IMG/VR virus record: IMGVR_UViG_3300020577_012118
From: an uncultured virus (IMG/VR IMGVR_UViG_3300020577_012118)
Lineage: Duplodnaviria; Heunggongvirae; Uroviricota; Caudoviricetes
Strand: one strand, 5' to 3'
DNA length: 64,000 nucleotides
Shown: positions 28,987 through 64,000 of the stretch, in pieces
Position numbering within the stretch: position 1 is the stretch's first letter
Layout: every line of letters begins with the position of its first letter
The notes under the pieces: model-generated
Seen by the model: only the letters and a program-made list of their open reading frames with translations
Told to the model about the DNA's origin: nothing
Database searches by the model: none
Made by a program: the position numbers and the translations under genes

Positions 28987-29929
28987 CATCTCGACCACGC
29001 TCAACGGGGCGATCAACAACTCCACGTCGAGCGTCGTCGTCACGTCCGCCACCGGCATGCCCTCCGTCGGCAACTTCCGCATCATCGTCGAGTCGGAAAT
29101 CATGAAGGTGACGGCCCGGACCGGCACCACGTTGACGGTCGTCCGCGCCCAGGAGGGTACGGCCGCGGCGAGCCACGCCGACCTCACGGCGGTCGATGTC
29201 GTCCTCACCGCCGACTCCGTGGCCGCCTACCGCGGCGACGCCTGCCAGTCGGGCGTCGCGTCCAGCCGGCCGGCGGCCGGGTCGAGCAGCATCGGGACGA
29301 CCTACCGCGAGACGGACGGACCGCTCGTCAGCCGCGACAACGGCAGCACGCTCGAATACTTCGGCCCCATCTGGCCCTGCACGAGGCACGACGACAGCGT
29401 CTTCTCGTGGATCCGCCAGGGGACGAGCGCGACGGTCACGACCAACGGCTCGATGACGTCGATGAAAGTGTCCGATGCCGACGGGAATTTCAGCCTGCGC
29501 ACCAAGTCGAAGACGGGCAACTACACGCTCACCGTCGGCCTCATGACCCAGTGCCAGGGCGGCATCGCGTTCGGAATCATCATCCGCGACAGCACGAGCG
29601 GAAAGTTCGTCCTCCTGGGCAACTCGTTCAACGGCGGCATTCGCGTCTTCAAGATGAACTCGCCGACGAGCTACAACTCCGACTACTCGTACTCGTTCGT
29701 CCTCAACTCGAACAACTTCGAGCTTCAACAGCGCCCCGTCACCTGGCTGCGGATCCAGGCCACGGCGTCGAACCTGATCTACTCGTACTCGCTGGACGGG
29801 TTCAACTTCTTCACGCTGTGCACCTCGACGCGCACCGACTTCCTCGCGGCCGACGACCAGATCGGCTACGCCGCCGTGGCCAACCACGGCGACAACTACC
29901 TGAGCGTCTTCTCCTGGGCCGAGCAGTAA
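28955..29929 (+). CDS. Probable tail fibre/receptor-binding protein with lectin-like C-terminal domain
   Basis: STTLNGAI...EIMKVTARTGTTLTVVRAQEGTAAASH phage fibre-type N-terminus; WLRI...YSYSLDG.NF ConA-like C-terminus. Confidence 0.65.
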   Translation: MTVAIEQVVNNISTTLNGAINNSTSSVVVTSATGMPSVGNFRIIVESEIMKVTARTGTTLTVVRAQEGTAAASHADLTAVDVVLTADSVAAYRGDACQSGVASSRPAAGSSSIGTTYRETDGPLVSRDNGSTLEYFGPIWPCTRHDDSVFSWIRQGTSATVTTNGSMTSMKVSDADGNFSLRTKSKTGNYTLTVGLMTQCQGGIAFGIIIRDSTSGKFVLLGNSFNGGIRVFKMNSPTSYNSDYSYSFVLNSNNFELQQRPVTWLRIQATASNLIYSYSLDGFNFFTLCTSTRTDFLAADDQIGYAAVANHGDNYLSVFSWAEQ

Positions 29930-29938
29930 GGGGCACGC

Positions 29939-31186
29939 ATGTCTCTTACCAGCCAACCGGGACGCTCGAACTCACGCCTTGGCAACTTCCGCTTGGGCGC
30001 GGCGGCGGCGCTGGGATCCGACCCGGCGGCCGCGCCGATGGCCTGGTGCGTCACCCGGCACCACCAGGAACACCTGGCCCCCGCACGCCGGGCCTTCCTG
30101 CGGGCCGCGTTCGCCTCGCGCCTGCCCGGCTCGTGGTCGATCGAGCCGTCGTTGACGCCCGAGACGATCACGCTCGACAAGTTCCACGTCTCCCTGGCCG
30201 AGCCGCCCCGCCCGGCGACGTCACTGCTCGACCGCCGCCACGTGTTTGCCCGTGGGCAACTGGGCGACGTCGTCCGGCCCGACGCGATCGACCCGCTGCC
30301 CGGCAGCCGGCCCGTCTGGCACGTGTCGATGTCGGAGCCGCCCCGCAACGCCTCGTTCAAGCGCGACAACCGCTTCGCCTTCCCGACCCGGTTCTTCGGC
30401 GAGCCGCCGGCCCCGGAGGTGGTGACGCTCGACCGGTTCGCCGGCAGCCTGGCCCAGCCGCCCCGCAGGGCCCTGCCGCGGCCGATCACCGTCGAGTACG
30501 AAATCGACATCTCCCATCTGGGCGACGTCGAGGACGTGCGCAGTTCCGCGTTCGACGTCCGCATGACGCGCGTCGTCCTGGCCCGGCCGCCCGCGCCGCG
30601 TCTTCCGGGGTCGGAACTGCTCGAGCCGTCCCTCATCCCCGAATCGCCGATCGCCACCGACATGCCCCCCTGGCACGTGGCGATGACGTCCGCCCCGCCG
30701 CGGCCGCGGACGCACGACCGCCGCGAATACTACCCGGACCACTGGATGGTCTTGACCGACGCCCAGACGGTCGAGGCCGTCTCGACGGACAAGTTCCACG
30801 TGCCGCTGGCCATCCCGCAGCTGCGACGCCGGCCGACGGCCCCCGGGCTGCCGCTGGGCGGCATCGACCTGGCCCCCGAGCAGCGTCTCGAGGTCCTGTT
30901 CGTCGATGCGTTCGACCAGGCGATCGGCCTCCCGCCTGACCTGCGCCGCCGCGTGCTCGACCTGGCGAAGCCCGACCTGGTCGGCGACGTCACGTACCTG
31001 GCGGAGTCGCCGCACGCCGACGCCCTGGTCCGCCAGGACGTGGCCATCCCGCCGCGACACCTGTCGCGGGCGGCCGCCCAGGTCATCGACTCGTCCTGGA
31101 TCATCGACGCCAACTTCGAGTACCCTTTGATTGTCCGGCTGCGCATAGGGATGCTGGCGGCCGGCCTCTGGAGGGCAAGGGGATGA
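29939..31186 (+). CDS. Pro/Arg-rich repetitive protein, possibly virion-associated
   Basis: Repeats ETITLDKFHVSLAEPPR, EVVTLDRFAGSLAQPPR, EAVSTDKFHVPLAIP. Confidence 0.55.
   Translation: MSLTSQPGRSNSRLGNFRLGAAAALGSDPAAAPMAWCVTRHHQEHLAPARRAFLRAAFASRLPGSWSIEPSLTPETITLDKFHVSLAEPPRPATSLLDRRHVFARGQLGDVVRPDAIDPLPGSRPVWHVSMSEPPRNASFKRDNRFAFPTRFFGEPPAPEVVTLDRFAGSLAQPPRRALPRPITVEYEIDISHLGDVEDVRSSAFDVRMTRVVLARPPAPRLPGSELLEPSLIPESPIATDMPPWHVAMTSAPPRPRTHDRREYYPDHWMVLTDAQTVEAVSTDKFHVPLAIPQLRRRPTAPGLPLGGIDLAPEQRLEVLFVDAFDQAIGLPPDLRRRVLDLAKPDLVGDVTYLAESPHADALVRQDVAIPPRHLSRAAAQVIDSSWIIDANFEYPLIVRLRIGMLAAGLWRARG
30245..30260. promoter_or_regulatory. Palindromic site copy 3 (intragenic)
   Basis: TTTGCCCGTGGGCAAC. 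Confidence 0.55.
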
Positions 31187-31536
31187 TTCCGGTGGATATC
31201 CGTTGCGGCAAGGGCGTCGTCTGCCCCAAGCCGCTGCTCGTGGCCTACGGCACGATGGTCGAGAAAGTGCTCCGCCCGGTCGGCCAGGAAGAGATGGGCG
31301 ACCTGTTCCTGTGTCCGCGGTGCGGAAACCATCGCGCCATCGACCTGAACAACTCGCCGGTCGATTTCGACGTCCCTGAATGCGACCAGCCGATTCCCGG
31401 GTCGGGCGGGTGGCGGAGCGTCTACCAGTGCGACCGGTGCAAGGTCCTCATGGTCGAGGACTATCACACGACCATCGGCGAAGCCGATATCGACCCGCAC
31501 GCCGTCGTGAACCTGTTAGACGAAGAGGAGGATTGA
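31183..31536 (+). CDS. Zn-ribbon hypothetical protein
   Basis: CPRCG...CDRC; ATGA overlap. Confidence 0.55.
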   Translation: MIPVDIRCGKGVVCPKPLLVAYGTMVEKVLRPVGQEEMGDLFLCPRCGNHRAIDLNNSPVDFDVPECDQPIPGSGGWRSVYQCDRCKVLMVEDYHTTIGEADIDPHAVVNLLDEEED

Positions 31537-31539
31537 CCC

Positions 31540-33366: not shown

Positions 33367-33372
33367 GCCGCC

Positions 33373-33473
33373 CTACGGTCGCCTCCCGCCTGTAGGAGGG
33401 AACACCCCGCCCGGTCCGCTTTACGATGCGGAGGTCGGGGTCGTTCTCTTTCGTGGCGGGAGGCAAGCCGTGG
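33373..33473 (+). promoter_or_regulatory. About 100-nt rod-like RNA hairpin covering the RBS and start of the next ORF
   Basis: Nested pairings GCCTCCCGCC/GGCGGGAGGC, GGAGGGAAC/GTTCTCTTT, ACCCCG/CGGGGT, TCCGC/GCGGA. Confidence 0.55.
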
Positions 33474-33664
33474 CGTCGAATTCCAACGGCAAGCCGACCC
33501 CTCCGGACCCGCACGAGCCGGGGCACGAACTGTGCCCGGTGTGCGCCTGGAGGCCCTGCACGAAGAACTGCCGATTCGGCCTCGACCAGAAGGACCTCGA
33601 CCGGTTCGAGCGGATGTTCGTCCGCCCCGCCGGCGAGGGCGTTCCCGAGGGGGACGGCCGGTGA
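33470..33664 (+). CDS. Small Cys-rich hypothetical protein
   Basis: GGAGG then GTG; CPVC...C...C; GTGA overlap with the next gene. Confidence 0.45.
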   Translation: MASNSNGKPTPPDPHEPGHELCPVCAWRPCTKNCRFGLDQKDLDRFERMFVRPAGEGVPEGDGR

Positions 33665-33855
33665 GCGAGCCGGTGCGCGAACAGGTGGTGATGCGGGAGT
33701 TCCCGGGGGTCGTCCTCAACGCCGACCCGCGTGACCTCGACGCGGGCGCGGCCCGCGAGCAGACGAACCTCGTCTGCTACGGCGGCAGCCTGATCGCCCG
33801 GCGCGGCAACAGAGACGTGACCTTCGACCAGACCATCGACGCGACGCCGTCGTAA
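33661..33855 (+). CDS. Small protein resembling the N-terminal segment of podoviral tail nozzle proteins
   Basis: FPGVVLNADPRDLDAGAAREQTN....GSLIARRG. Confidence 0.5.
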   Translation: MSEPVREQVVMREFPGVVLNADPRDLDAGAAREQTNLVCYGGSLIARRGNRDVTFDQTIDATPS

Positions 33856-33865
33856 GGAGCCAGGA

Positions 33866-34390
33866 ATGAGCGGCGGGGAACTGGGAGTCGTCGAACTGGG
33901 CGAGACCCTCGTCGCCCCCTTCGCCGTGTCGGCCGGCGACGACGTCCCGGCCGAGCCGACGAGCCTGCCGACGTACCGCGTCTACGGCCAGGGCACGGCA
34001 CCGGTCACGAACGGCCTGGGGTCGGCGAGCAAGCTCGACACCGGCACCGTCACGAACGCCAGCAACGCCACGCCGATCGTCATCACGCAGGCTTCGCACG
34101 GCCTCCAGACGGGCACCTCCGTCACCGTCTCCGGGGTGACCGGCAACACGGCCGCCAACGGCACGTTCAGCGTCATCCGGGTCACCGCCGACACCTACAG
34201 CCTCACCGGGTCGAGCGGGAACGGGGCCTACGCCTCCGGGGGCGTCGCGCACGTCACCGGCCTGTACCGCCTGTCGATCGCCGTCACCGCCGGCGACGGG
34301 TACGAGGCGGGCAAGACCTACCACGTGCATGTCACGTGGACGATCGCCAGCGTGCAGTACGCCGCCCTCTTCTCCTTCCGGGTCATCTGA
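33866..34390 (+). CDS. Tail-associated protein with FCCH-like beta domain
   Basis: VTNASNATPIVITQASHGLQTG..VTVSGVTGNTAANG.F.V. Confidence 0.65.
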   Translation: MSGGELGVVELGETLVAPFAVSAGDDVPAEPTSLPTYRVYGQGTAPVTNGLGSASKLDTGTVTNASNATPIVITQASHGLQTGTSVTVSGVTGNTAANGTFSVIRVTADTYSLTGSSGNGAYASGGVAHVTGLYRLSIAVTAGDGYEAGKTYHVHVTWTIASVQYAALFSFRVI

Positions 34391-34393
34391 GCC

Positions 34394-34807
34394 ATGTACA
34401 TCGGCCGGTACAGCCTGGGCGAAGAACTGATCGTGCCGGTGCATTGCACCGCCGCCGGCCAGGTCGTCACGCCCGACGGCGCACCGTCCGTCACGTTCTA
34501 CGGCCCCGACGGCTCGACCGTCCTGTCGGCCCTCGCCGCCGGCTGGGACCGGCAGCGGACCCCCGGGCTGTTCGCCTACCGGCGGCAGCTGGGCAGCGAC
34601 TTCGCCCCCGGCCGCTACGCGGTGCGCACCGGGTACATGGCCGGGGGCGTGGTCCGGCAGCGCGTCCTGCACTTCGACGTCGTCGCCGGCGGCAGCGCCG
34701 ACGGCTGCGTCGTCTCCATGCTCCACCTGGTGCGACCTCACGCCGATTACCTGATCCGAAAGACCGACGCGGGCAAACGTCTGTTCGGGAGGAGTCCGAC
34801 GCCGTGA
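34394..34807 (+). CDS. Hypothetical tail-region protein
   Basis: LGEEL....P...P....YGP...TPGLF pattern similar to the ends of 33866-34390. Confidence 0.55.
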   Translation: MYIGRYSLGEELIVPVHCTAAGQVVTPDGAPSVTFYGPDGSTVLSALAAGWDRQRTPGLFAYRRQLGSDFAPGRYAVRTGYMAGGVVRQRVLHFDVVAGGSADGCVVSMLHLVRPHADYLIRKTDAGKRLFGRSPTP

Positions 34808-34956
34808 AGACGGACCTGGTCAAAGTGGTTCTGCTCAAGACCGACGGGAAGCGTCTGACGCTCCATCTCGAGGAGGCGGTCGCCCGGAACCTGATGCACG
34901 AACTGTGGCTCCTGCTCAGACAGGTGCCCGTCCCCGACGAGGAGCCGAAACGGTGA
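34804..34956 (+). CDS. Small hypothetical protein
   Basis: GTGA overlaps at both ends; GGAGGAG upstream. Confidence 0.4.
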   Translation: MKTDLVKVVLLKTDGKRLTLHLEEAVARNLMHELWLLLRQVPVPDEEPKR

Positions 34957-35411
34957 GCCGAAAACTCAGCAAGGAGCAGCGGACCTACTACCGCATGCTG
35001 GCCCGCTGCCACGACGAGGATCACCCGCGTTACCCCTGGTACGGCGGCCGCGGCATCCTCGTGTGCGAGCGGTGGCGTCGGGGCTTCGACGTCTTCCTCG
35101 CCGACATGGGCAAGGCCCCGTCGCCGAAGCACACGATCGAGCGGAAGGACAACGAGAAGGGCTACAGCCCGTCCAACTGCGTCTGGGCGACGTGGAAGGA
35201 GCAGGCCCAGAACCGGAGGACCTCCGTCCACCTGACGTTCCAGGGCGAGCGGCTGACGATCGCCCAGTGGGCCGAACGCCTGGGCGTCGATCGCCGCGTC
35301 GTCTGGAAGCGGATCGACGCCGGATGGTCCGCAGAGGCGGCCGTCACCACGCCCAAGGCCCCGCGCAAGCCGCGCATCATCCCGATCTCGAACGCCCGGA
35401 GGGCCGCGTGA
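34953..35411 (+). CDS. Free-standing HNH homing endonuclease
   Basis: MLARC....YPWYGGRGI.VCERW...F..FLADMG...TIERKDN.KGYSPSNC.WAT..EQ..NRR. Confidence 0.85.
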   Translation: MSRKLSKEQRTYYRMLARCHDEDHPRYPWYGGRGILVCERWRRGFDVFLADMGKAPSPKHTIERKDNEKGYSPSNCVWATWKEQAQNRRTSVHLTFQGERLTIAQWAERLGVDRRVVWKRIDAGWSAEAAVTTPKAPRKPRIIPISNARRAA

Positions 35412-43018: not shown

Positions 43019-43034
43019 TTTGCCCACGGGCAAC
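43019..43034. promoter_or_regulatory. Palindromic site copy 4 (intergenic)
   Basis: TTTGCCCACGGGCAAC. Confidence 0.65.
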
Positions 43035-48546: not shown

Positions 48547-48562
48547 GTTGCCCGTGGGCAAA
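48547..48562. promoter_or_regulatory. Palindromic site copy 5 (intergenic, upstream of HTH gene)
   Basis: GTTGCCCGTGGGCAAA. Confidence 0.65.
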
Positions 48563-51770: not shown

Positions 51771-52349
51771 ATGCCGACGCCGCCAGCCGACCTTTCCGGA
51801 ACGATCCCCGAGGACACCCCGGAGCCCGCCAACATGACGCTCAAGTATCTGGGAGACTACTCGTACAAAATCGAGGGCGTCAACCAGACCGGGGTAACCG
51901 TCACCCTGACGCCCGGCGGCGCTCCGGCCCGCTCGCTGACGATGAGCCCGACGTCCGGGTACGTCAGCTTCGACGACAACAATGTCACGGAAACCGGAAC
52001 ATGGGCGACCCTCTTCCCCTTCAACTTCGTGAACGGCAAGCTGATGGGCCGTGGTCGGCTGAAGGATAACATCGGCTACGGCGTCTTCGGGCAGCTGACC
52101 CCGATCCCCATGTGCTACCCGAACCAAGCCAAGGTCTACTTCGCCGAAGGGAAGATCAGGTTCTACAAGGACGGCGTCGGCGGCGACAAAATCGACGTGA
52201 CCGTGAACGCCCGCTTCGATTACGAACGGGACCCGACGGACCCGGCCGCCGCCCGGTGGCTCGTCCGGTGCGGCGTCACCAGCGTCGATGCCCCGGGCGT
52301 CCCGCTCAGTTCGGGCGGGGGTGACGAGCCTCCGGTCGAGGGCGAGTGA
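51771..52349 (+). CDS. Hypothetical beta-rich protein, opposite strand to its neighbours
   Basis: AGGAG RBS before ATG 51771. Confidence 0.55.
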   Translation: MPTPPADLSGTIPEDTPEPANMTLKYLGDYSYKIEGVNQTGVTVTLTPGGAPARSLTMSPTSGYVSFDDNNVTETGTWATLFPFNFVNGKLMGRGRLKDNIGYGVFGQLTPIPMCYPNQAKVYFAEGKIRFYKDGVGGDKIDVTVNARFDYERDPTDPAAARWLVRCGVTSVDAPGVPLSSGGGDEPPVEGE

Positions 52350-53133
52350 CGGGCGGCGGGTCCGCGTCCTTCTTGACGGCCTCCAGGACCCGCTTCCGCC
52401 ACGCCAGGGCGTACTCCAGGCAGTTGGCGCAGTTCTTGTGCGTGTGCCCCTCCATGGGCGGCACACGCCTCGCCTCTGCGGACCAGGCCAGCGAGTCGCT
52501 CGACGCGACCCGCCGGCCCCAGTTCGCCACGGACCACGTATCATCGACCAGCCCTCCCCGCTTCATGCCGAAGAAGTGGGTCATGATGCCGTGAAGCCAG
52601 AGCCACGTCTGGAGGTTCTTGCACCAGGTCGTTCCCTGCCGGCGACAGACGCTTCCGACGCCGACGATCCTGGCCCTGGTCAGGTCGATGCCCGCCGCCT
52701 TGTACTCGTGGATATGGTCCACGTACTGCGGGATGCACTGGCCCTGGAGAACGGGCATCCATGACACCTCCGGGGCCAGCCTCGTCAGGTCGAGGTAGCT
52801 CTGGACGGTCCGGGCCTGATGCTCCCGCACCGTCAGGCCCGTCTTCGCCAGCATCGCCGGCTCGCACATCCAGTCCTGGATCGCCGCGAAATCCATCATC
52901 CCGATGTCCTTGCTCCACGAGCGGACCTCGTCGGCGTAGCGTTCCGGTTCGGTCATCCACTTGCCATACTTGCCGATCTCCGTGAACCCCCCGGAGTCGA
53001 GCGCCCAGCGGGCGATCGCCCGGGGCATGTTCCGCCGGCGGAACAGCCGCCGGCGGGAGACGAACAGCGGCACGCCGGCGACGGCGAGCCAGTTGGGCAT
53101 GTGCGTGCCCAGGTAGAACGTAAAGTCTCCCAC
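52306..53133 (-). CDS. dpdA: DpdA/tRNA-guanine transglycosylase-like DNA modification protein
   Basis: WALDSGGF, QDWMCEP, MPVLQG, VGVGSVCRRQ, HFFGMK, SSDSLAWS. Confidence 0.7.
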   Translation of the reverse strand: MGDFTFYLGTHMPNWLAVAGVPLFVSRRRLFRRRNMPRAIARWALDSGGFTEIGKYGKWMTEPERYADEVRSWSKDIGMMDFAAIQDWMCEPAMLAKTGLTVREHQARTVQSYLDLTRLAPEVSWMPVLQGQCIPQYVDHIHEYKAAGIDLTRARIVGVGSVCRRQGTTWCKNLQTWLWLHGIMTHFFGMKRGGLVDDTWSVANWGRRVASSDSLAWSAEARRVPPMEGHTHKNCANCLEYALAWRKRVLEAVKKDADPPPVTRPRPEARHPRPN

Positions 53134-54854: not shown

Positions 54855-55694
54855 TCACATCTCCCAATCCGAAACGCGGCCGGTCTCGTCGCCGGCCTCG
54901 ACCGCCCGGAGAACGCTCTCCAGGTCGAACTTGTGGCGGAACAGGTGTCCCGTCCGCCTCTGCACACCAACGTACTCACGCAGGAGGGCAGGATCCTCCC
55001 GCCCGGCAATCACCAGGGCCTCGAACGGGGCGAACACGCAGAACTTGCAGGACAGCCGCGGCATGCCCATGTCGTAGACCCGGTGGTACGGGACGCCGCT
55101 CTGGTGGATGTCGCCCCACACCTGGCGGGCCGTCCATCCGTGGATCGGCAGCCAGACGTACACGCCGCGGTTCTTCGAGGAAGCCTTGTCGTCCCGGTAG
55201 AACGGCAGCATCTTGCTCCGCTTCGGCGATTCATCGGCACGCATCCCCATGACGTTGAGGAACGTGCAGTAGCAGCCGGCCTCCCGCTGCAACATGGTGA
55301 TCACGCGGCGGATCGGGCCGCGCTTGAAGTCGCTCGTGCAGTAGCGGTTCACGCTGTCCGGCCACATGCCCCGCTTCTCGATCGACTCCAGGAGGGACGG
55401 CTCCGCCCCCTCCTTGTTCCGGGCCTTGGTCACGACGAACCTCAGCCCGTAGCGTTTCGCGTGGTCGGCCGCAAGCTCCTTCGCGCCCGGCCACTCCATC
55501 ATCCCCAGGTCGGCGTGGACGGCGACCAGGCGGCGTCGGTCAACGCCGACCTGGTCGGCGACCTCGACGGCCCGCCGCATCGCCGTCTGACTGTCCTTGC
55601 CTCCCGACGTGTTGAGCAGCCAGTAGTGCGACCCCCGCAGCATATGCTCCGGCGGCAGGACGTCCGGCTTGCCGGACATTGGAAGCTCGATCAT
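54855..55694 (-). CDS. PAPS reductase family (PP-loop) protein
   Basis: SGGKDS, RYCTSDFKRGP, GMRADES..R, WLPIH.W, RLSCKFC. Confidence 0.85.
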   Translation of the reverse strand: MIELPMSGKPDVLPPEHMLRGSHYWLLNTSGGKDSQTAMRRAVEVADQVGVDRRRLVAVHADLGMMEWPGAKELAADHAKRYGLRFVVTKARNKEGAEPSLLESIEKRGMWPDSVNRYCTSDFKRGPIRRVITMLQREAGCYCTFLNVMGMRADESPKRSKMLPFYRDDKASSKNRGVYVWLPIHGWTARQVWGDIHQSGVPYHRVYDMGMPRLSCKFCVFAPFEALVIAGREDPALLREYVGVQRRTGHLFRHKFDLESVLRAVEAGDETGRVSDWEM

Positions 55695-55904: not shown

Positions 55905-56105
55905 TCACCTCCCGAAAAATCTCGCGGCCTTGCGGCCGCATCGTCCGCACGGGTCTGCCCCACACTGGTGGAGGCGGCCGCCGCACCATTCGCAGTAGGT
56001 GCGGCTCTTGACCAGCAGCGGCCCGCACCTCTTGCAGTGGCGCGGGTCCGCAACCTTCATCTCCGTCTTCGACCTTCCGCAGCCGCGACAGTAGGACCCT
56101 GGCAT
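55905..56105 (-). CDS. Small multi-CxxC protein
   Basis: CRGC, CKRC, CEWC, CGRC; GAGGAGG RBS. Confidence 0.5.
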   Translation of the reverse strand: MPGSYCRGCGRSKTEMKVADPRHCKRCGPLLVKSRTYCEWCGGRLHQCGADPCGRCGRKAARFFGR

Positions 56106-56656
56106 CACTGCCTCCTCGTTAGCCCGGCGATAATCGGCAGACCGTACTTCGTCGGCCACGCCTTCTTTGCAAAGATGCCCTGGATCAGTTGCCCGCGGGC
56201 AACCCGCTTGTCGTCCTGCTCCGTCAGCCAGTCGGCGTAGGCCATCCACGTTGCCACGTCCTCCGGGTCGGCGTGGATCCCCTCGATAAACACCGACTCG
56301 ATCCGGTTCATCGGGAGCGGGACCTCGTGCAGGCCCAGCGACCAGAGGACCTTGCGGGCCAGGTTGCCGATCGGTTCCGACCGGAACTCGTATTCGGCGT
56401 TGCGGCAATAGCGCAGGAACTTGTAGGCCGGGCCGATCATGTCGGGCAGCTTTAAGCCGAACGTACAGAACCAGACGTGCCCCTGGCGTCCCGACCACCG
56501 CTGCACCCACTTGGCCCCGAACAGGGGGGCGAACTCGTGATTCGCCCCCGCCCATGCCGAGGCCGGCACGGGCTGACTTCCTTCGATTTGCGGCAGGCCG
56601 GGGAACAGGATCCTTGCGCACCCCGGGTTGATGTCCGCCCTGAACGTCAGCGTCAT
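56105..56656 (-). CDS. TIGR02996-like domain protein
   Basis: FIEGIHADPEDVATWMAYADWLTEQDD.R..RGQLI. Confidence 0.75.
   Translation of the reverse strand: MTLTFRADINPGCARILFPGLPQIEGSQPVPASAWAGANHEFAPLFGAKWVQRWSGRQGHVWFCTFGLKLPDMIGPAYKFLRYCRNAEYEFRSEPIGNLARKVLWSLGLHEVPLPMNRIESVFIEGIHADPEDVATWMAYADWLTEQDDKRVARGQLIQGIFAKKAWPTKYGLPIIAGLTRRQ
56188..56203. promoter_or_regulatory. Palindromic site copy 6 (intragenic)
   Basis: GTTGCCCGCGGGCAAC. Confidence 0.5.
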
Positions 56657-59487
56657 AGCTCGATCCCCATGGCCGCCAGTTCGTCCGCCAGGTCGTCCAA
56701 CTCCTCGCCCATGTCCTCGCCGTCGAGGCGGGCCTCCAAGGCTTCGAGCATGTCTTCGTACTCGTCGCGGTCCGGCTCCTTGGCCCGGCCCGTCGCCTTG
56801 CGCTTCACCTCCGCCCCGCTCGTCACCTTCTGCCACGCCCTCACGCCCCCGTCCTCCTTGATGTTGTCGGCCAGCGACTTGGCCAGCGCCATCTCGATGT
56901 TACTATCGTCGCCTGCCATGGCCGCCAGGCCCTCGCTGGAGAAGTTCCCTTCCAGCGCCTGGGCCGCGGCCATCTTCTTGCCCATCAGGGCCATGGCCCT
57001 GGTCTGCATCGAGTCGGAGTAGCTCATGTACGCCACCTTGCACATCTTCTTCTGCCCGATCCGCCAGGCGCGTCGGGCCGCCTGGCGGAGCGTGAACAGC
57101 GAATACCCCGTCTGGTAGAAGAGGATCGAGCAGTAGTTGTGGCCGGTCGCCGGGTTGAAGAAATCCAACCCCGTCTGCACCAGCTGCGGGTGCGAGATGA
57201 TCACGTCATGGTCCTTTCCGTGGGCGTCGATCCACGCCTCACGATCCCGGGGGCTGACCTTGGCACGCATCACGGCGACCCGCAGGCCGGCCGCCTTCAT
57301 GAACCGTTCGAGGCGGGCGATACAGTCGCGCTTGTCGGTGTAGACCGCGTACACCCACGCCTGCCGCCCGGCGTCGCGCTCCTTGACGCACCACTCGACG
57401 GCCGCCTTCTCCTTCGGACGCATGACCGACGGGTCGAGGTTCTCAGGCACGGTCACCGTGACCCATCGCCTCTCGCCCATCCCGCTGGCGCTGTCCTCGT
57501 CGTCCTCGTAGTAGCCGATCGCCTCCCAGTCGTAGGGGTAGTCCGGGTAGCACAGCAGGCAGTTGAGCATGCTTCCCAGCGCCTTGCGGCCGCCCTTCTT
57601 CATCATGTCCTTGATGGCTTGCGTGATGTCGCGATCGACCTTCTCGTAGGCCGCCCGCTGCTCGTCGTCCATCGGAACCTCGATGGGCTCCTCGTCGAGG
57701 ACGGGGAGGTTTTCTGCGACCTCCGCCAGGGACAAGAAGACGCACGACCCCATCAGGTGCCGGAACAGCGTCGGCATGATTCCCGGGCGGGTGTACTTGG
57801 TGGTCGTCACCCCCTTCTTCGACCGCCCGTAGGTCATGCCCTTGCCCAGGTCGTCGGGCCGGTTGTCCTCCTTGAACTTGACCTTCTCCTCGATCCTGCC
57901 GAACTCCTCGTCGAAGCTCTGCTTGGCGTCCCACTCGTGCCCGGCTTCGATCAGGGACTGGGCGACGCCCATCCGGTACAGCCCGCAGCGGACGTGCCAG
58001 GCGTAGCCGCCGACGAGCGTGCCGGTCAGGCCGATGCACTTGCGGACGGCGGCCGCCACGTCCCCCATGGCGTCGCCCTGGAGCGAGTCGTCCCCCTTGT
58101 ACTCGTGGGCCTCGTCGAAGATGGCGATGTCCCAGAAGCCGCGGAGCCGCCGGTTGATGATCTCCGCCGGCGAGTACCGGGCCGGCTTGGGGATCGACTG
58201 CCAGAGTTGTTCGCCGCAGCGGTGACACTCCTTGCGGCTGGAACCCTTGGCGAAATACTTGTCCGGGATGGGGATCGTCTTGTTCGACTTCATCGTCAAC
58301 ACGCACCCGCAACCCGGACAGCGGTAGCGCCCGCCCTTCTCGCCCAGCGTCTTCTCCTTGACGTAGGCGTGCCGCCACTCGCTGCCCAGCTTGAGCTTGT
58401 CCTTGCCGATGACGTAGTAGGTGTACCCCTCGCACGTCTCGTAGCACGACTTGCGGGTGCGCAGCCCCTCGTTGATGATGGCCAACTCCTCGTTCGCCTG
58501 GTCGTCCTTGCCCTCCTTGCGCAGCTGGTACATCCGGTCGCCCCACTTGGGGAGGTCCCGCGAGATCGGCAGCAGTTCGCGGTACCGCCTGTTGTGCTCG
58601 TCCTTGCCGACGTTGAACTTCCGCCGGCGTTCGGCGTGCTGCCGGGCCAGGGCGAGGAGTTGGGCGTAGGAGTCGATCACGTACACCGTCGCCCCGGGCA
58701 CCGTCTTCTGCACCTCGCGGACCCACTTGTCCACGAGCGTCGTCGGGCAGACGACGAGCGCCCGGTAGCTGCCCTTGCAGACGTTGCGGAAGACGCGCGG
58801 CGAGTGGAGCACCCACTCCTGGGCCTTCTTGCCGGCCGCCTTCATGGCGACGCCGGCTGCCCCCGCCATGACGGCCGCACGGTGCGGGCTGCCGGCCTCC
58901 ATCCCCTTGTGGCTGACGACCCGCCCCTTGTACTCGCCGGCGGGCGTCACCTCCCAGCACGTGGCCTTGCGGTTCCACACGGGCGTCAGGCCCGGCACCC
59001 CGATCGTGTTGCCTCCGCCGTTGACGTAGCGCTTTCCGCGGTACGTGAACGGCTGGATTCGTATCGTGCCGTGTTTGTGGTCGCCGGGCGACGTGTGCGC
59101 CTTCTCGATCTCCGCGTAGAGCGCCTCGCCGACGTCGATGTACGGGCCGTAGGTCTTGACGTCCTTGGCCTCGCCGTCGGCCGGGAAGAACCGCCTGGCG
59201 TGATTCGTGTAGCGTTCCAGGCCGTAGCCGTGAGCCGCCCCGATCGCCATGATCGTCTTGCCGGTGCCCATCTCCGCCGTCGGCTGCACGGCCTTGGCCC
59301 GGCGGAGTTGCTTGATGGAGGCTTCGATCACGTGCTTCTGGGCGTCGAACGGCTCACGCATCAGGCCCAGATCTCGCACCTTGTCCCGCCCGGGGACGTG
59401 CAGAGGGGCCAGCGTCTTACGGGCCTTGTCGGCGAGGATGTCGCCGTACTCCATCAGGAAATCGTCGAGCGTCTTGCAGTTGAACAT
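56653..59487 (-). CDS. SF2 (SNF2-like) helicase
   Basis: AEMGTGKT, LVVCP..L..KW.RE, DEAH, LTGT, LVQTGLD, RQAARRAWRIGQ. Confidence 0.85.
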   Translation of the reverse strand: MFNCKTLDDFLMEYGDILADKARKTLAPLHVPGRDKVRDLGLMREPFDAQKHVIEASIKQLRRAKAVQPTAEMGTGKTIMAIGAAHGYGLERYTNHARRFFPADGEAKDVKTYGPYIDVGEALYAEIEKAHTSPGDHKHGTIRIQPFTYRGKRYVNGGGNTIGVPGLTPVWNRKATCWEVTPAGEYKGRVVSHKGMEAGSPHRAAVMAGAAGVAMKAAGKKAQEWVLHSPRVFRNVCKGSYRALVVCPTTLVDKWVREVQKTVPGATVYVIDSYAQLLALARQHAERRRKFNVGKDEHNRRYRELLPISRDLPKWGDRMYQLRKEGKDDQANEELAIINEGLRTRKSCYETCEGYTYYVIGKDKLKLGSEWRHAYVKEKTLGEKGGRYRCPGCGCVLTMKSNKTIPIPDKYFAKGSSRKECHRCGEQLWQSIPKPARYSPAEIINRRLRGFWDIAIFDEAHEYKGDDSLQGDAMGDVAAAVRKCIGLTGTLVGGYAWHVRCGLYRMGVAQSLIEAGHEWDAKQSFDEEFGRIEEKVKFKEDNRPDDLGKGMTYGRSKKGVTTTKYTRPGIMPTLFRHLMGSCVFLSLAEVAENLPVLDEEPIEVPMDDEQRAAYEKVDRDITQAIKDMMKKGGRKALGSMLNCLLCYPDYPYDWEAIGYYEDDEDSASGMGERRWVTVTVPENLDPSVMRPKEKAAVEWCVKERDAGRQAWVYAVYTDKRDCIARLERFMKAAGLRVAVMRAKVSPRDREAWIDAHGKDHDVIISHPQLVQTGLDFFNPATGHNYCSILFYQTGYSLFTLRQAARRAWRIGQKKMCKVAYMSYSDSMQTRAMALMGKKMAAAQALEGNFSSEGLAAMAGDDSNIEMALAKSLADNIKEDGGVRAWQKVTSGAEVKRKATGRAKEPDRDEYEDMLEALEARLDGEDMGEELDDLADELAAMGIEL

Positions 59488-59507
59488 CGCACTCTCCCTA
59501 TAGAAAG

Positions 59508-59533
59508 GGCCGTTTGCCCATGGGCAAACGGCC
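59508..59533. promoter_or_regulatory. Palindromic site copy 7 (intergenic, upstream of helicase)
   Basis: Perfect 26-bp palindrome GGCCGTTTGCCCATGGGCAAACGGCC. Confidence 0.7.
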
Positions 59534-59554
59534 TTACCCGTCGTCGCGGACCCG

Positions 59555-60157
59555 TCACTTCTTGGCCTTGGCCTCCAACTCCTTCCTCCGCCGCTCCGAA
59601 CGCAGATGCGAGACGATCTCCTTCCGCCGTGCGGGCGTCGTCGGGGCGAGCAGGAGGTCCGGCGTCAGGCCGTCGAGCAGGGCGCACAGCGAGTCAAGCA
59701 TCGACGTGAAGGAAACCATGCCCGGCTCGTACTTGGCGATCGGCGGCAGGAGTCCCTTGGCCCGCTTCCTCTGCTCACGCTTCGACGGATCGACGTCGGC
59801 ACAGTGGTCGAGCATGAACTCGAACACCTCTTCCGGGACGTTCGAGCATTCGGGTCCGGACCCTTCGGCGATCGACAGTTCGCCGAACCAGTAGAAGTTC
59901 GACCGGCCCTCGTTGAACCAGTAGTAGGGGCACAGCTTGCCGATCATCAGGTACTCCAGGCGGGCCAGCTGTTCGGCCCCGGGGTAGCCGATTTGGTGGT
60001 CGTCCATGTGGTCACGCAGGGCGAGCATCGCCAGGGCCTTCGACAGGTCGGCGTCCACGCCCGCCTCCGCGGCCGCCTTAGCGGCTTCGGTGAACTCCTC
60101 CGCCGCGTCCTTGAGCATCTGCTGCTGCACCCGATCGAGTTGTTCGAAGAACATCAC
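59555..60157 (-). CDS. Hypothetical protein
   Basis: Helical ORF with GGGGGAG RBS; GTG start. Confidence 0.6.
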   Translation of the reverse strand: MMFFEQLDRVQQQMLKDAAEEFTEAAKAAAEAGVDADLSKALAMLALRDHMDDHQIGYPGAEQLARLEYLMIGKLCPYYWFNEGRSNFYWFGELSIAEGSGPECSNVPEEVFEFMLDHCADVDPSKREQRKRAKGLLPPIAKYEPGMVSFTSMLDSLCALLDGLTPDLLLAPTTPARRKEIVSHLRSERRRKELEAKAKK

Positions 60158-60169
60158 ATCTCCCCCTTG

Positions 60170-60793
60170 TCAGTCCGCGACGCGGACAGTCCCCTTCTTC
60201 ACCAGGTCCATAGCCACTTCGTCGAGATACTTGTCGTCGGCCAGCACCAGGGCGGCGTTGATCGGGCCGCGGTTGCCGGCGTCCACGATCCTCTGGTCCT
60301 TCTCCATCCGGGCGACCACTTCGGCCAGCCAACGCTCGTCGAGCGGCGTCGTGGTGTGAAGCTGCAAGTAACGCCAGACGGCCTGGTGGCAGCGGTTGAC
60401 CAGAAGCGTCTTGCGCTTGCTGATCGCCACCAGGTGGAAGTGCCCGTCGCCGACCGCCTTGGTTCTGACGGCGTAACCTTCGGAGTCGGCACCCGACGTC
60501 TCCGTCCGGCCCTGCTTGCCGGCCTTCTCGAACGGGCAGTAGTGGAACTGGATGCCCCGCCCGACCTGGAGAGCCGCCCGGAAGGCCCGGACCTCCGTGC
60601 TGGTGCCGATCGCCGACATCACGAGCAGCGAGCGGGTGTAGCTCGTGTCGATGGCCACGCGATCGACACGCAGGCTGAACCCGCACGCCTCCGACTCGAT
60701 CGTCAGCTTGCCGATGACCCCGGGGTGGCCGGGGCGGGGAACCCGGGAGACTTTGCCGCCAGGTACGCCCGGTAAATCCTTGGTCTCGACCAT
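60170..60793 (-). CDS. Hypothetical protein upstream of the helicase
   Basis: LLVMSAIG.ST.VRAFRA.L...VWRYL...TTTPL...W; start uncertain. Confidence 0.55.
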   Translation of the reverse strand: MVETKDLPGVPGGKVSRVPRPGHPGVIGKLTIESEACGFSLRVDRVAIDTSYTRSLLVMSAIGTSTEVRAFRAALQVGRGIQFHYCPFEKAGKQGRTETSGADSEGYAVRTKAVGDGHFHLVAISKRKTLLVNRCHQAVWRYLQLHTTTPLDERWLAEVVARMEKDQRIVDAGNRGPINAALVLADDKYLDEVAMDLVKKGTVRVAD

Positions 60794-61479
60794 TTCTTGC
60801 CCTTTCCCGTGAGGATGCCGGCCGCCATGAAGGCGAGCCAAATCTGATCGAACGTCTTGCCTTCTTCCTCGTGCAGACGCACCACCTGGTGCATCGCATC
60901 GACCTCGCGGTCGTCCCAGACGAGGCGCTTCTGCCCCTTCGGGCCGTCGTACCTCTGCCCCAGGCCCGGGGCACCGGCCGCACGGCCCTGGGCCTTTCGG
61001 AACTGCATGACCTCCCTGGTCCGCTCCGCGATCATCTCCCGCTCCGCCTGGGCGAACTGGGCCATGAGCCGGATATACAGCCGGCCCGGGGCGGTGCCGG
61101 TGGTGATCTTGTCGCGGACCAGGTGGACCGTCACGCCCCGCTCGATCCAGTCCTCCAGCGTCGCCACGGCGTCACGGAAGGACCGGAAGCCGCGGGCGAT
61201 GTCGAGCATGACGACGTGATCGCCGGTCCGGACCCGGGCCGCCAGTTCGCCGCCGGCGGGCCTCCTGGCGAACGGCACCCTGCCCGACACGCCCGACCGA
61301 TCTCCGGTCGTCTTGTCGATGAAGATGCCGCCGTCCGAAGTGCCCATGGGCAAATGGTCGGCCATGTACTTCGAGACCATCGACTTCTGGCACTCGATCG
61401 AATGCCCGTCGTCCGCCTGGCCGGCCGTCGAGACCCGGACGTATCCGTAGCCGACGGGCTTCCTTGTCGTGACGCTCAC
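60703..61479 (-). CDS. Serine recombinase (resolvase/invertase family)
   Basis: YGYVRVST..Q, GVSG, RRP, GD.VV...ARGFRS, FAQAEREMIAERT. Confidence 0.9.
   Translation of the reverse strand: MSVTTRKPVGYGYVRVSTAGQADDGHSIECQKSMVSKYMADHLPMGTSDGGIFIDKTTGDRSGVSGRVPFARRPAGGELAARVRTGDHVVMLDIARGFRSFRDAVATLEDWIERGVTVHLVRDKITTGTAPGRLYIRLMAQFAQAEREMIAERTREVMQFRKAQGRAAGAPGLGQRYDGPKGQKRLVWDDREVDAMHQVVRLHEEEGKTFDQIWLAFMAAGILTGKGKKWSRPRIYRAYLAAKSPGFPAPATPGSSAS
61340..61354. promoter_or_regulatory. Palindromic site copy 8 (1 mismatch, inside recombinase gene)
   Basis: GTGCCCATGGGCAAA. Confidence 0.5.
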
Positions 61480-61853
61480 GTTTCCCCCCTATCGTCGTCC
61501 GAGGCGACCATGACGGCGTCGTCCCACGACAGCCCCTGACGCTCGCCCTCGCCGCCGACGGGGATGGGTCCGTCGATCGCCATGTGGGGCATCAGCGACA
61601 CTCTGCTCACGACCCAGGAGTCGCCGCTCTCGACGATCTCCTCCATCCACGCCGTCCCGCAACCTCCGTCACAGCGGGTGATCGAGTACATCAGGACGAC
61701 CCGGTCACCATTCGCCGTCCGGACCTCGCCCCAGTCCAGCTGCTCCCAGGCCCACTCGCTTGCCCCGCAGCCCGGACACCCGGAGCCGCGTTCGGCGACG
61801 TACCGGTTACAGGCCAAGGCCCACTGGACCTTGTTCTTCTTCAACGCTCCCAC
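61476..61853 (-). CDS. NKV Zn-ribbon family member 1
   Basis: KNKVQ...CPGCG...CDGGC..W. Confidence 0.65.
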   Translation of the reverse strand: MGALKKNKVQWALACNRYVAERGSGCPGCGASEWAWEQLDWGEVRTANGDRVVLMYSITRCDGGCGTAWMEEIVESGDSWVVSRVSLMPHMAIDGPIPVGGEGERQGLSWDDAVMVASDDDRGET

Positions 61854-61856
61854 CGT

Positions 61857-62105
61857 TCACTCCTTATGCACGGCCTCATCGACACCCTCGACCATCACCG
61901 TTTGCCCATGGGCAGTTTCCACCGTTTCCTTCCAGAGCGCCCTGCACCGTCTGCACCGGTAGATCACTTTCCAGTGGGCGTCGCCGTCCGGGATGCCTCC
62001 CGGCCGTTCGACCTCAGTCCACATCTCCGGGAAGGCCCCGCACCCCGGGCATGCAATGGCCTTCTCGTTCAGGTAGGCGACTACCTGAACCTTGTTGAGC
62101 CTCAT
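61857..62105 (-). CDS. NKV Zn-ribbon family member 2
   Basis: LNKVQ...CPGCG...CRRC..W; GGGGGAG RBS. Confidence 0.7.
   Translation of the reverse strand: MRLNKVQVVAYLNEKAIACPGCGAFPEMWTEVERPGGIPDGDAHWKVIYRCRRCRALWKETVETAHGQTVMVEGVDEAVHKE
61901..61915. promoter_or_regulatory. Palindromic site copy 9 (1 mismatch, intragenic)
   Basis: TTTGCCCATGGGCAG. Confidence 0.5.
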
Positions 62106-62138
62106 CGGCTCCCCCTTTCTGTCTCCAATGGTGAGGCA

Positions 62139-62181
62139 CCATTATCCCATAATGGCGTCTAAATGTCAAACGACGGGCTAT
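62139..62181 (-). promoter_or_regulatory. sigma70-like promoter with overlapping inverted repeat and conserved upstream element
   Basis: TTGACA-N17-GATAAT (62169-62141); CCATTAT-CCC-ATAATGG over the -10; flank matches 1766-1784 at 17/19. Confidence 0.7.
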
Positions 62182-62455
62182 ATGGCGGGATGCAAGACGT
62201 GTCCGGCCTGATCTCGACCGCCGCGATCGTGTCTTGCATCCCGCCCTCGACGAAGCCGGTCGTCAAGAACCAGGACTTGCGGCAGTTGTCGCAGACGTGG
62301 CGGACGACCATCCTCGTCTCGTTCCCCATGCGGTAGGCGACCGGGGCACGCCCCGAGAACTGGCAGACGCGGGCCTGTCCGTCCGGCCCGCAGTAGGGGC
62401 ACAGCGGCAGCGTGCCGATCCCCTCGACGACGCGGCAAGCGTACACCTTGTTCAC
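62159..62455 (-). CDS. NKV Zn-ribbon family member 3
   Basis: MNKVY...CPYCG...CDNC..W. Confidence 0.65.
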   Translation of the reverse strand: MNKVYACRVVEGIGTLPLCPYCGPDGQARVCQFSGRAPVAYRMGNETRMVVRHVCDNCRKSWFLTTGFVEGGMQDTIAAVEIRPDTSCIPPYSPSFDI

Positions 62456-62706
62456 GCCGTGATCTCCACCAGTTCATTGTCCCGCGTTCGGTAGACCATC
62501 GCGAATTGCCGCTCGCACGACAGGCACCGCCGCGTGCAAACGTAGACCGACTCTCGCGTCTTGTGGCAGATCGCGTACCGCGAGTCGTACCTACCGGAGT
62601 AGGTGCCCGAATGCTCGCCGCACAGTGGGCATGCGTCCATGTACTCCGGCAAGAGATGCCTCACTCTCCGGCTGTTCATGATGCGCACCACCACCACCTT
62701 GATCAT
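62452..62706 (-). CDS. NKV Zn-ribbon family member 4
   Basis: MIKVV...CPLCG...CLSC..F; 4-nt overlaps at both ends. Confidence 0.65.
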   Translation of the reverse strand: MIKVVVVRIMNSRRVRHLLPEYMDACPLCGEHSGTYSGRYDSRYAICHKTRESVYVCTRRCLSCERQFAMVYRTRDNELVEITA

Positions 62707-62969
62707 CCCTCCCTCCTTCTGTATGGCACGACGTGCGTCACGTGCGTCGTCCGCTTGACGTCGAAGTCATAACGGACGCCGACGCGGCACCTGCACGAGT
62801 ACCCTACCCATTCCCCGTCGCACGTCCCTTTGTCGTTGATCATGGCCTCCCGTCCGGACGGCGTTTCGTCCGGTTCATACGTCCACTTGTTGCTCCTTCC
62901 GCACACGGGGCACGGAACGGTTACGAACGGCGGGCCATGTACGACCCGCACCAGGTTCGCCTTGTTCAT
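62703..62969 (-). CDS. NKV Zn-ribbon family member 5
   Basis: MNKAN...CPVCG...CRC; GGAGG RBS. Confidence 0.65.
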   Translation of the reverse strand: MNKANLVRVVHGPPFVTVPCPVCGRSNKWTYEPDETPSGREAMINDKGTCDGEWVGYSCRCRVGVRYDFDVKRTTHVTHVVPYRRREG

Positions 62970-63217
62970 GCTGTCTTGCCCTCCGGGTAGCGCTCGTCGG
63001 CGACATCGATGAACCCAGTCACCTCGCCCAGTTCGTGATCCCAGCCGACAACGAACCGGCAGCCGTTCATTCGGCACCAGTACACGCGCTGTCCGGACGG
63101 ATGGCCATGCGGCGTCGCGTGCATCCGGAACGACTCGACCGTTCCGCACACCGGGCAGCGCCGGTATGGGTTGTCGTCCTTGCGTCCGAAACTCGCCCTC
63201 GTCACCTTGTTGCCCAT
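62966..63217 (-). CDS. NKV Zn-ribbon family member 6
   Basis: MGNKVT...CPVCG...CRMNGC; AGGAGG RBS. Confidence 0.65.
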   Translation of the reverse strand: MGNKVTRASFGRKDDNPYRRCPVCGTVESFRMHATPHGHPSGQRVYWCRMNGCRFVVGWDHELGEVTGFIDVADERYPEGKTA

Positions 63218-63231
63218 GATTCCTCCTGCCG

Positions 63232-63495
63232 TCACCTTGTGGTGATCGACGTGATGACGGTCTGCTCGTACCGCCTGTTGTCGAAAAAACCCGTCGCGTA
63301 GTGCAGAACGTAGAAGCCGTTGCAGATGCGGCATCGCGTACTGACGGCGTCCTCTCGAATTTCCGGCGTCCGCCTTTCGATGCGAGCCTTGATCCGCTTC
63401 TGGTAGCCGTGCTGCCCGCAGTGCGGGCAGACGTCCATGGCGAGCGATCCTCGACGCCGGCTGATCATCCGGCACACGATCACCTTGTTCAGCAT
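63232..63495 (-). CDS. NKV Zn-ribbon family member 7
   Basis: MLNKVI...CPHCG...CRIC..FY. Confidence 0.65.
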   Translation of the reverse strand: MLNKVIVCRMISRRRGSLAMDVCPHCGQHGYQKRIKARIERRTPEIREDAVSTRCRICNGFYVLHYATGFFDNRRYEQTVITSITTR

Positions 63496-63507
63496 GAGGC
63501 CCTCTGA

Positions 63508-63768
63508 CTAACTGTTCAAAGACACGTCGATGACGTCCGTGAGGTAGTAGCCGTCCCACGGGTCGAACATCTCCCGGTCGGGGCTGTAGCGGAGGACGTA
63601 CCACGCATCGCACCCGCCGCAATGTGCAATGTGGCCATACTCGTTTTGCAGACGCCTTCCCATTTGCTGGTTGCACCTGATGCCGCAGCACGGGCACATC
63701 ATCGTCTGGCCCAGCGTTCCGCCCAGGATGAGGACGACGGCCGGCTTCTTGAGCGTGTATCGCGTCAC
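63508..63768 (-). CDS. Zn-ribbon family member 8
   Basis: LKKPAVV...CPCCG...CGGC..WY; GGAGG then GTG. Confidence 0.6.
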   Translation of the reverse strand: MTRYTLKKPAVVLILGGTLGQTMMCPCCGIRCNQQMGRRLQNEYGHIAHCGGCDAWYVLRYSPDREMFDPWDGYYLTDVIDVSLNS

Positions 63769-64000
63769 GCCGCGTCCTCCTGGCCGTCGATGATCTTGAC
63801 GTTGGTGATAATGTTGTCGCCGCGGACCCATCCGACAAGCAGCGTCATGCCGCACCGGTCGCACCGGATTTTTGCCGCGGCGAGGACGACGCTGTCGCCT
63901 GCGTCCCAGGCGATGCACACCTGGCGTCCTTCGGTGCCTTGATGATCGACGCGACTCATGTCGCCACGCCGACAGGACGCCGCTACGCACGCCACCCTGG
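63765..64000 (-). CDS. Zn-ribbon family member 9 (probably 5'-truncated by the window edge)
   Basis: Frame open to the window end; CVAASC...CDRCG followed by beta strands. Confidence 0.5.
   Translation of the reverse strand, partial: RVACVAASCRRGDMSRVDHQGTEGRQVCIAWDAGDSVVLAAAKIRCDRCGMTLLVGWVRGDNIITNVKIIDGQEDAA

Follow-up and report, generated by a model that had tools for sequence, protein, structure and literature searches.

The array and its coding signals

The DNA analysed here, referred to below as the window, is a stretch of 64 000 nucleotides from the uncultivated virus of IMG/VR record IMGVR_UViG_3300020577_012118, a double-stranded DNA phage of ~69 kb. At the far end of the window lie nine successive head-to-tail open reading frames (ORFs) on the minus strand, m1–m9, which extend from position 61476 to ~64073 and encode small cysteine-rich proteins of 82–125 amino acids (aa). 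A tenth copy, m10, is found far away in the structural module (Table 1). A first-pass annotation of the window, made from the sequence alone, had described nine consecutive leftward ORFs of which several are joined by four-base overlaps. This is confirmed: ATGA or GTGA overlaps occur at m9/m8, m6/m5, m5/m4, m4/m3 and between m1 and the adjacent serine recombinase gene, making five when the last is counted.

The same annotation took the array to comprise at least nine members and to run off the window edge. The m9 gene does cross the edge, and its start is placed at ~64073 because the full-length protein in the protein library (P0013) has 102 residues. The array, however, seems to end at nine, since no additional member from beyond the window emerged when 1.84 billion representatives were searched with the profile. 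The contig continues for ~4.6-5.2 kb past position 64000. A 40-base pattern taken from the window end had no exact match in metagenome_contigs.

The array genes look like real coding genes. In the six members measured in their true frame (m1–m4, m7 and m9) the third-position GC content is 0.78–0.91. A purine-rich Shine–Dalgarno-like stretch precedes all eight of the starts that fall within the window, as judged by eye over the 25 nt upstream, and is weak at m7. The start of m8 is the same site as that given by gene callers, and identical ORFs are called on both of the assemblies that carry the array.

Table 1. Positions and characteristics of the array genes, the dispersed copy and other features of the window. 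Scores for m1–m9 are from the leave-one-out test described in the text; pI, isoelectric point.
Feature	Position	Strand	Length (aa)	Characteristics	Score (bits)
m1	61476..61853	-	125	NKVQ, CPGCG, C-x3-C as second pair; pI 4.4, with a long acidic tail at the C-terminus	20.3
m2	61857..62105	-	82	NKVQ, CPGCG, CRRC	25.7
m3	62159..62455	-	98	GTG start; NKVY, CPYCG, CDNC	20.1
m4	62452..62706	-	84	IKVV, CPLCG, CLSC; basic, pI 9.1	20.9
m5	62703..62969	-	88	NKAN, CPVCG, irregular second knuckle (C...CRC)	16.5
m6	62966..63217	-	83	GNKVT, CPVCG, second pair C-x4-C	12.3 (marginal)
m7	63232..63495	-	87	NKVI, CPHCG, CRIC; very basic, pI 10.2, net charge +10	20.3
m8	63508..63768	-	86	GTG start after AGGAGGA; KKPAVV strand, CPCCG, CGGC	8.9
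m9	63765..64000 (cut by window edge)	-	102 (full length, P0013)	SKVLIV strand, first knuckle C-x4-C, second CDRC	4.2
m10	31183..31536	+	117	Structural module; EKVLRPV strand, CPRCG, CDRC, acidic tail (pI 4.5)	
Small ORF with Cys pairs, not array family	28413-28652 (rightward arm)	+			10.5 (E 0.027)
Small ORF with Cys pairs, not array family	7400-7591 (rightward arm)	+			6.8 (E 0.4)
Serine recombinase, small	60703..61479	-	258	Resolvase N-terminal domain PF00239, E 9e-26; start overlaps m1 stop	
SNF2 helicase	56653-59487	-		CPGCG...CHRCG zinc ribbon inserted at residues ~385-430	
DpdA homologue	52306-53133	-		PF23859, E 3e-74; same arm as SNF2 helicase	
PAPS-reductase-like protein	54855-55694	-		Same arm as SNF2 helicase	
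DNA methyltransferase	14560-15741				
DNA methyltransferase	17963-19114				
Sigma-70-like promoter, predicted	62141..62169	-		TTGACA-17-GATAAT with TG, 11/12; in 53-base m3/m2 gap	
Palindrome TTTGCCCATGGGCAAA, eight copies	125-140, 1870-1885, 30245-30260, 43019-43034, 48547-48562, 59513-59528, 61339-61354, 61901-61916				

Shared architecture, predicted fold and relatives

The nine proteins follow a common plan in which an N-terminal hydrophobic strand beginning xK(V/A/P) is followed by CPxCG, a loop of 21–36 residues, a second cysteine pair and a β-hairpin. The N-terminal motifs of m1–m7 are those of the first-pass annotation (NKVQ twice, NKVY, IKVV, NKAN, NKVT and NKVI), to which m8 and m9 add KKPA and SKVL. 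The first knuckle is CPxCG in eight of the nine members (m1–m8), with C-x4-C in its place in m9. The second is CxxC in seven of the ten copies, the exceptions being m1, m5 and m6, so that the spacing varies while the two-knuckle cysteine plan is present in all ten. Pairwise identity between copies is 16–32%, the range also obtained on comparison with m2, and the low identity between the anchors that had been claimed is borne out. Charge likewise varies widely, with pI values from 4.4 to 10.2.

These anchors are concentrated in the array. Six-frame translation of the window yields the string CP.CG 12 times, eight of these being array members and the remaining four the tenth copy, the zinc ribbon of the SNF2 helicase and two off-frame strings. 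NKV is found three times outside the array in 122,796 six-frame residues, compared with five of the nine array N-termini, while the loose form of the N-terminal pattern is present in all nine members and in three of the 65 other genes. One of these three, 8623-9024(-), starts with NKV and contains no cysteine. We considered a general start-context effect as the origin of MNKV and rejected it, as only 3/65 other genes have the loose pattern.

To place homology on a quantitative footing, each member was scored against a profile of the other eight, with 1,000 shuffles of the member itself and 325 decoy ORFs from the window as controls. The scores of m1–m5 and m7 (16.5–25.7 bits) and of m6 (12.3 bits) lie above every control. 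Because they exceed all 1,325 controls, these seven copies are clear homologues of one another; m8 and m9 are assigned to the group only by their architecture and position.

The tenth copy was found with the nine-member profile (E 3.5e-6, 23 bits) among 1,128 six-frame segments from the window and one relative, and it aligns with the array with an hhalign probability of 83%. Its start codon overlaps the stop codon of the preceding structural-arm gene (ATGA), with GGAGGG ahead of it, and its KV motif is internal (residues 27–29). In a library of 5.8 billion clusters m10 has a single relative, which is encoded on the second assembly and is 75% identical to it. Every cysteine is retained in this orthologue pair, as are the 33 residues at the N-terminus, and inspection of the alignment by eye places the changes mostly after the strand and after the first knuckle.

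AlphaFold2 models of m7 and m2 were calculated from the nine-row alignment. The predicted local distance difference test (pLDDT) and predicted template-modelling (pTM) scores are 70.9 and 0.60, respectively, for m7 and 69.8 and 0.59 for m2. Both models have four antiparallel strands after the first knuckle, in the same order, with the second knuckle at the turn between strands 2 and 3. Confidence is low at the N-terminal motif, with block means of 42–56 in m2 and 47–49 in m7. The comparison of predicted folds proposed by the first-pass annotation thus gives the same four-stranded meander for the two of the ten copies that were modelled. In an exhaustive VIA structure search the two models match the same chains, and within them the same segments, with middling scores. 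The top rows are to Sec12 (4h5i_A, residues 211-265/266; Z 6.0 and 5.4) and to propeller blades of DPP4 and nucleoporins. The closest zinc domain is that of NrdR (residues 1-45), to which m7 aligns at Z 4.7 (20% identity and a root-mean-square deviation of 1.3 across 44 residues) and m2 at Z 4.1-4.3. Two other folds were discarded. A WRKY-like zinc domain is represented by a single row at Z 4.3 and has no Pfam match, and for a β-propeller assembled from single-blade proteins the blade rows (Z 5.4-6.0) probably reflect a generic four-stranded meander. Matches in the ESM Atlas are to unnamed or generic zinc-ribbon clusters only. Among solved structures, the best sequence match of the array profile is to the TFIIS/RPB9-type ribbon 1qyp (E 0.0018), and TFS models give weak matches to m2 and m10 (E 0.021 and 0.0076) that fall far below their cut-offs. 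The models, the shared chain segments and the 1qyp match together suggest that the copies share one zinc-ribbon meander of the long-hairpin type.

Searches for relatives returned little beyond the phage itself. The nine array members reach no family in Pfam or PHROGs (scan at E up to 1), the nine members and m10 reach none in NCBIfam, and m10 has no Pfam match at E up to 0.001. A word-indexed search of the 5.8 billion clusters gave six proteins, all of them this phage's own, and the exhaustive profile search of the 1.84 billion representatives gave 42 proteins at E up to 0.001, of which nine are the array itself. The other profile matches inspected (19 read and 14 scanned) are either longer proteins that contain at least two zinc modules or C2H2 arrays of the classical kind; of the 14 distant matches scanned, four pass the Lar_restr_allev (PF14354) cut-off and three are C2H2 proteins. 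Full-length matches in both large searches are limited to this phage's copies. With m2 and m7 as tblastn queries, 50,697 phage records gave no match at E up to 1, blastn of positions 56100-64000 against phage records also gave none, and the recombinase used as a query returned no related locus. The array alignment contains no stretch conserved enough for a locus scan.

The copies are therefore closer to each other than to anything outside the genome, as in other lineage-specific paralogue expansions. The idea that one zinc-ribbon scaffold has been expanded by duplication finds support in the shared architecture, in the leave-one-out result for seven of nine members and in the two AlphaFold models, which fall on the same chain segments. 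On anatomy and expansion taken together, the array is very probably a lineage-specific tandem expansion.

The nearest precedent is Bacillus phage G, in which a lineage-specific expansion of ~35 zinc-ribbon (ZnR) proteins has been described, with the suggestion that they are specific transcription factors or structural DNA-binding proteins (Iyer et al., 2021; PMC7824862). Both sets consist of many diverged small zinc-ribbon paralogues, largely in tandem, within one phage. Phage G, a jumbo phage, has 498 kb and ~35 copies, whereas the present phage has ~69 kb and 9 + 1 copies. A hidden Markov model of the array scores no more than 9.9 bits on 19 small phage G proteins (JN638751, positions 25312-35068). 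At the C-terminus the phage G copies share a conserved helix (YWKENDRYL) for which no array member has a counterpart, and they lack the N-terminal xKV strand of the array proteins. The two sets are thus different families, given the profile scores below 10 bits and the absence of the YWKENDRYL helix here.

Comparison with other zinc ribbons is similarly partial. The array members resemble the TFIIS/RPB9/TFS ribbon (PF01096, 1qyp) in being C4 ribbons with CxxC, ~25 residues and a second CxxC followed by an aromatic residue. The knuckles are 21-36 residues apart here and ~24-26 in C4 ligands of the TFIIS type. PF01096 gives no row for the nine members at E up to 1. An acidic hairpin defines TFIIS function, and no conserved acidic pair is found in the strand 1-2 loop of the array alignments. 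Unlike the TFIIS ribbon, the array members also have one more strand at the N-terminus and another hairpin at the C-terminus, and no TFIIS partner is known for bacterial RNA polymerase. The N-terminal ribbon of NrdR (9fzf_A, 7p37_A) covers the part from knuckle 1 to strand 3 with its residues 1-45, and m7 is equally basic. Unlike NrdR, the array members contain no ATP-cone domain (no Pfam match) and end 20-60 residues past the second knuckle, and their charge is not conserved across the copies. Lar (PF14354; PHROG 599), which acts in anti-restriction, is a small phage zinc ribbon that also carries CPxCG near its N-terminus. No PF14354 row is obtained for the nine members at E up to 1, and m2 matches PHROG 599 only at E 0.012. 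Lar has a helix after the second knuckle, where the array members have a β-hairpin. The Ogr/Delta activators (PF04606) likewise give no row for the nine members at E up to 1. A literature search for tandem zinc-ribbon paralogues in phage turned up nothing specific. Judged by these sequence comparisons, the array is a new, previously undescribed family, and zinc-ribbon expansion is, as a kind, already known from phage G.

Genome setting, stability and expression

The array is carried by two independent assemblies, contigs of 69,178 and 67,923 bp, on which its proteins are identical. The closest record (G001) is a 24 kb fragment identical to window positions 9089-33433, and the array lies outside its span. 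The phage identity of the window is indicated by a major-head-like protein, a large terminase, tail genes, a RecE-like exonuclease and a DnaC-like loader; two DNA methyltransferases, DHFR and a RuvC-like resolvase are also encoded. The array forms the head of the leftward non-structural arm and is followed by the serine recombinase, two unknown proteins and the SNF2 helicase. The DpdA homologue and the PAPS-reductase-like protein of this arm presumably constitute a 7-deazaguanine DNA-modification module, and we take the phage DNA to be probably so modified. Homologues of the helicase in other elements likewise contain an inserted zinc ribbon. Upstream of one of them (locus L008) a small ORF, 4513-4821(+), has the pattern C-x2-C ... 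CPRCG and may resemble the Com-type zinc fingers of phage Mu.

Six sequencing runs from three studies contain all or part of the stretch, and four of these were compared over 58000-64000; no RNA run is among the runs listed with the stretch. The 54.7 kb contig of one run spans 58000-64000 with 41 differences, of which 40 are listed, all within 58093-60653, so the recombinase–array stretch can hold at most one. The 40 listed differences fall in the helicase and the two unknown genes. Run X3 has no differences over 62984-64000 and 30 over 58000-62971, three of them with known places. In X5 and X6, low-depth riverine runs from a third study, all pieces of at least 151 bases are identical to the window, and some shorter pieces carry differences. 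No joints indicative of inversions or deletions were found in the contigs of the four runs over 58000-64000. From these runs and the identical array proteins on the two assemblies we conclude that the array is old, currently stable and not rearranged by the recombinase in these samples. The copies were called 'hyper-diverged' by the first-pass annotation. They are indeed strongly diverged from one another but, given the identical array proteins on the two assemblies and the identical X5/X6 pieces of at least 151 bases, not currently hypervariable. A recombinase–array stretch with at most one difference, beside a 75%-identical m10 on the second assembly and clustered differences in the helicase region, looks like mosaic exchange between close phage variants. 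Two mechanisms of active diversification were considered and rejected: a diversity-generating retroelement, as there is no reverse transcriptase among the ORFs scanned and the array is invariant, and a shufflon or other invertible array, as the run contigs show no joints and the inverted repeats are only short and imperfect.

The predicted promoter in the m3/m2 gap is the only sigma-70-like site in the whole window to reach 11/12; three sites of at least 10/12 are present in the 64 kb on both strands, compared with a shuffle mean of 0.68. With this promoter placed in the gap, the host polymerase probably transcribes m2, m1 and the recombinase as a single unit, and the early or host-polymerase setting envisaged for the array is plausible. 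The promoter for m9-m3 is outside the window. A second sigma-70-like site, 1744-1772(-) (TTGACA-17-CATACT, 10/12), lies at the annotated start of a 511-aa leftward ORF, the true start of which is therefore probably further downstream.

A 16-bp palindrome, TTTGCCCATGGGCAAA, is present in eight copies in the window (three perfect and five with two mismatches) against 0.04 expected. Two of the copies lie within the m2 and recombinase genes, and the copy at 59508-59533 forms a hairpin with an 11-bp stem between a 200-aa ORF and the SNF2 helicase. The palindrome could serve as operator, terminator or processing site.

Possible functions of the copies

As a whole, the data are best explained by a lineage-specific expansion of C4 zinc ribbons, nine adjacent and one dispersed, that are used as binders, an account that in our judgement stands evenly balanced between right and wrong. 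The two cysteine knuckles presumably hold one zinc ion. The zinc ribbon would be a fixed scaffold, from which the strand 1-2 loop (21-36 residues) and the C-terminal tail, both of which differ by copy, would give each copy its own macromolecular target within the infected cell. The basic copies m4, m5 and m7 would probably bind nucleic acid in the manner of the NrdR ribbon and the acidic-tailed copies m1 and m10 would probably bind proteins, so that the copies may be small proteins that regulate or inhibit the nucleic-acid machinery of host or phage. The array genes all share one orientation, most of them appear to be translationally coupled, and at least m2, m1 and the recombinase would be expressed from the near-consensus host-type promoter. 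The functional part of this account, that the copies make up a repertoire of binders, is offered tentatively, at somewhat less than even confidence. A part for such binders in host takeover or anti-defence would be conjectural.

The first-pass annotation had suggested that NKV may be a shared docking or targeting signal. The simplest reading of the motif is that it opens the first strand of the domain. A hydrophobic strand also precedes CPxCG in the distant repeat proteins P0016 and P0028, which lack NKV (as judged by eye), and for this reason a structural role appears to be at least as likely as a docking or targeting signal.

Several results weigh against a repertoire of binders built on one scaffold. 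In the leave-one-out test m8 (8.9 bits) and m9 (4.2 bits) do not rise above the controls. All of the structural matches have Z below 8, the level that the search tool regards as meaningful, and may reflect only a common arrangement of strands; Foldseek gave no match in the PDB or BFVD at E up to 0.001. The homologues of the SNF2 helicase lie in 47 loci (four viral, 18 genome and 25 metagenome; 487 kb), where a single-protein query had given one locus, and no comparable array or array-like ORF cluster is present in any of them. The best profile matches there (E 0.006-0.075, nonsignificant) are to the zinc ribbon inserted in the helicases. These loci therefore provide no comparative support for any function. 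Lastly, the identical array proteins and run pieces give no sign of an arms race on a short time scale.

The copies may instead be sequence-specific DNA-binding regulators or structural DNA-binding proteins that time phage expression, possibly at TTTGCCCATGGGCAAA. The nearest zinc domains (NrdR, TFIIS/RPB9 1qyp and TFS) bind DNA or RNA polymerase, five of the ten copies have a pI of at least 8.4, with m7 the most basic, and the palindrome is far more frequent than expected and lies within two genes of the region. This is also the function put forward by the authors of the phage G study for the expansion in that phage (PMC7824862). Conversely, four copies (m1, m2, m8 and m10) have an acidic or neutral pI, ten is a large number of regulators for a phage of 69 kb, none of the members scores above the cut-off of a DNA-binding family and there is no link between TTTGCCCATGGGCAAA and the array proteins. 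Taking both sides together, we consider this explanation possible but doubtful.

It is improbable that the array is neutral baggage, that is, old duplicates with little or no present function that are kept because they are small. The lack of homologues elsewhere, the absence of arrays near helicase homologues in other elements and the degenerate cysteine spacing of m5, m6 and m9 would be expected on this basis. The nine open frames with coding-type third-position GC where measured, ribosome-binding sites and coupling would not, nor would a two-knuckle plan retained in ten of ten copies at such low identity, or a sequence that is identical on two assemblies and in pieces of at least 151 bases from a third study.

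Two further possibilities concern the N-terminal motif. In phage T4 the internal proteins are a cluster of small proteins that look unlike one another and share an N-terminal capsid targeting sequence of ~10 residues, which is cleaved off; their genes are expressed with the head genes. A speculative proposal, to which we attach a low probability, is that the xKV strand is a common plug that docks all of the copies on one shared partner while loop and tail give each a different second target. The partner could be the capsid or ejection machine, as for the T4 internal proteins, or a host hub bound through strand addition. It is very unlikely that the motif is a targeting signal by which the copies are packed in the virion and injected so as to act before phage gene expression. 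The enrichment of NKV-type N-termini (five of nine by the strict pattern and all nine by the loose one, against 3/65 other genes by the loose one) and the location of m10 inside the structural module, coupled to a structural-arm gene, would fit such a signal. Only two or three residues are conserved, however, and these run straight into the hydrophobic strand; the motif is internal in m10, the array is in the non-structural arm behind a host-type promoter and no protease site is recognizable. Finally, the overlap of the m1 stop with the recombinase start (GTGA) and the promoter at 62169-62141 common to m2, m1 and the recombinase could be taken to mean that the copies are accessory or directionality factors of the recombinase, which we consider highly unlikely in view of the absence of joints in the run contigs and the short, imperfect inverted repeats. 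We also know of no precedent for nine factors serving one small recombinase. Prediction of a complex between m1 and the recombinase gave a score of 0.09 (mark 0.32), which speaks neither for nor against contact between them.

Considered as an expansion of zinc-ribbon proteins, the array is notable for the mid-sized genome of the phage that hosts it, for its conserved N-terminal strand motif and for the small, tractable size of its members. Ten copies of a ~60-residue scaffold with clear anchor residues are much more amenable to experiment than the 30-copy arrays found in jumbo phages. Small phage proteins confined to one lineage are among the chief sources of new inhibitors that act on host defence, transcription and replication, and paralogue expansions mark the investment of a phage in such functions. 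If the copies have distinct targets, they would show how a single zinc scaffold can be turned in nature to many specificities, and if the xKV strand is a common plug the phage would hold a small combinatorial library of zinc-stabilized adaptors. If the copies do nothing measurable, the array would bear on how long phages keep old duplicates.

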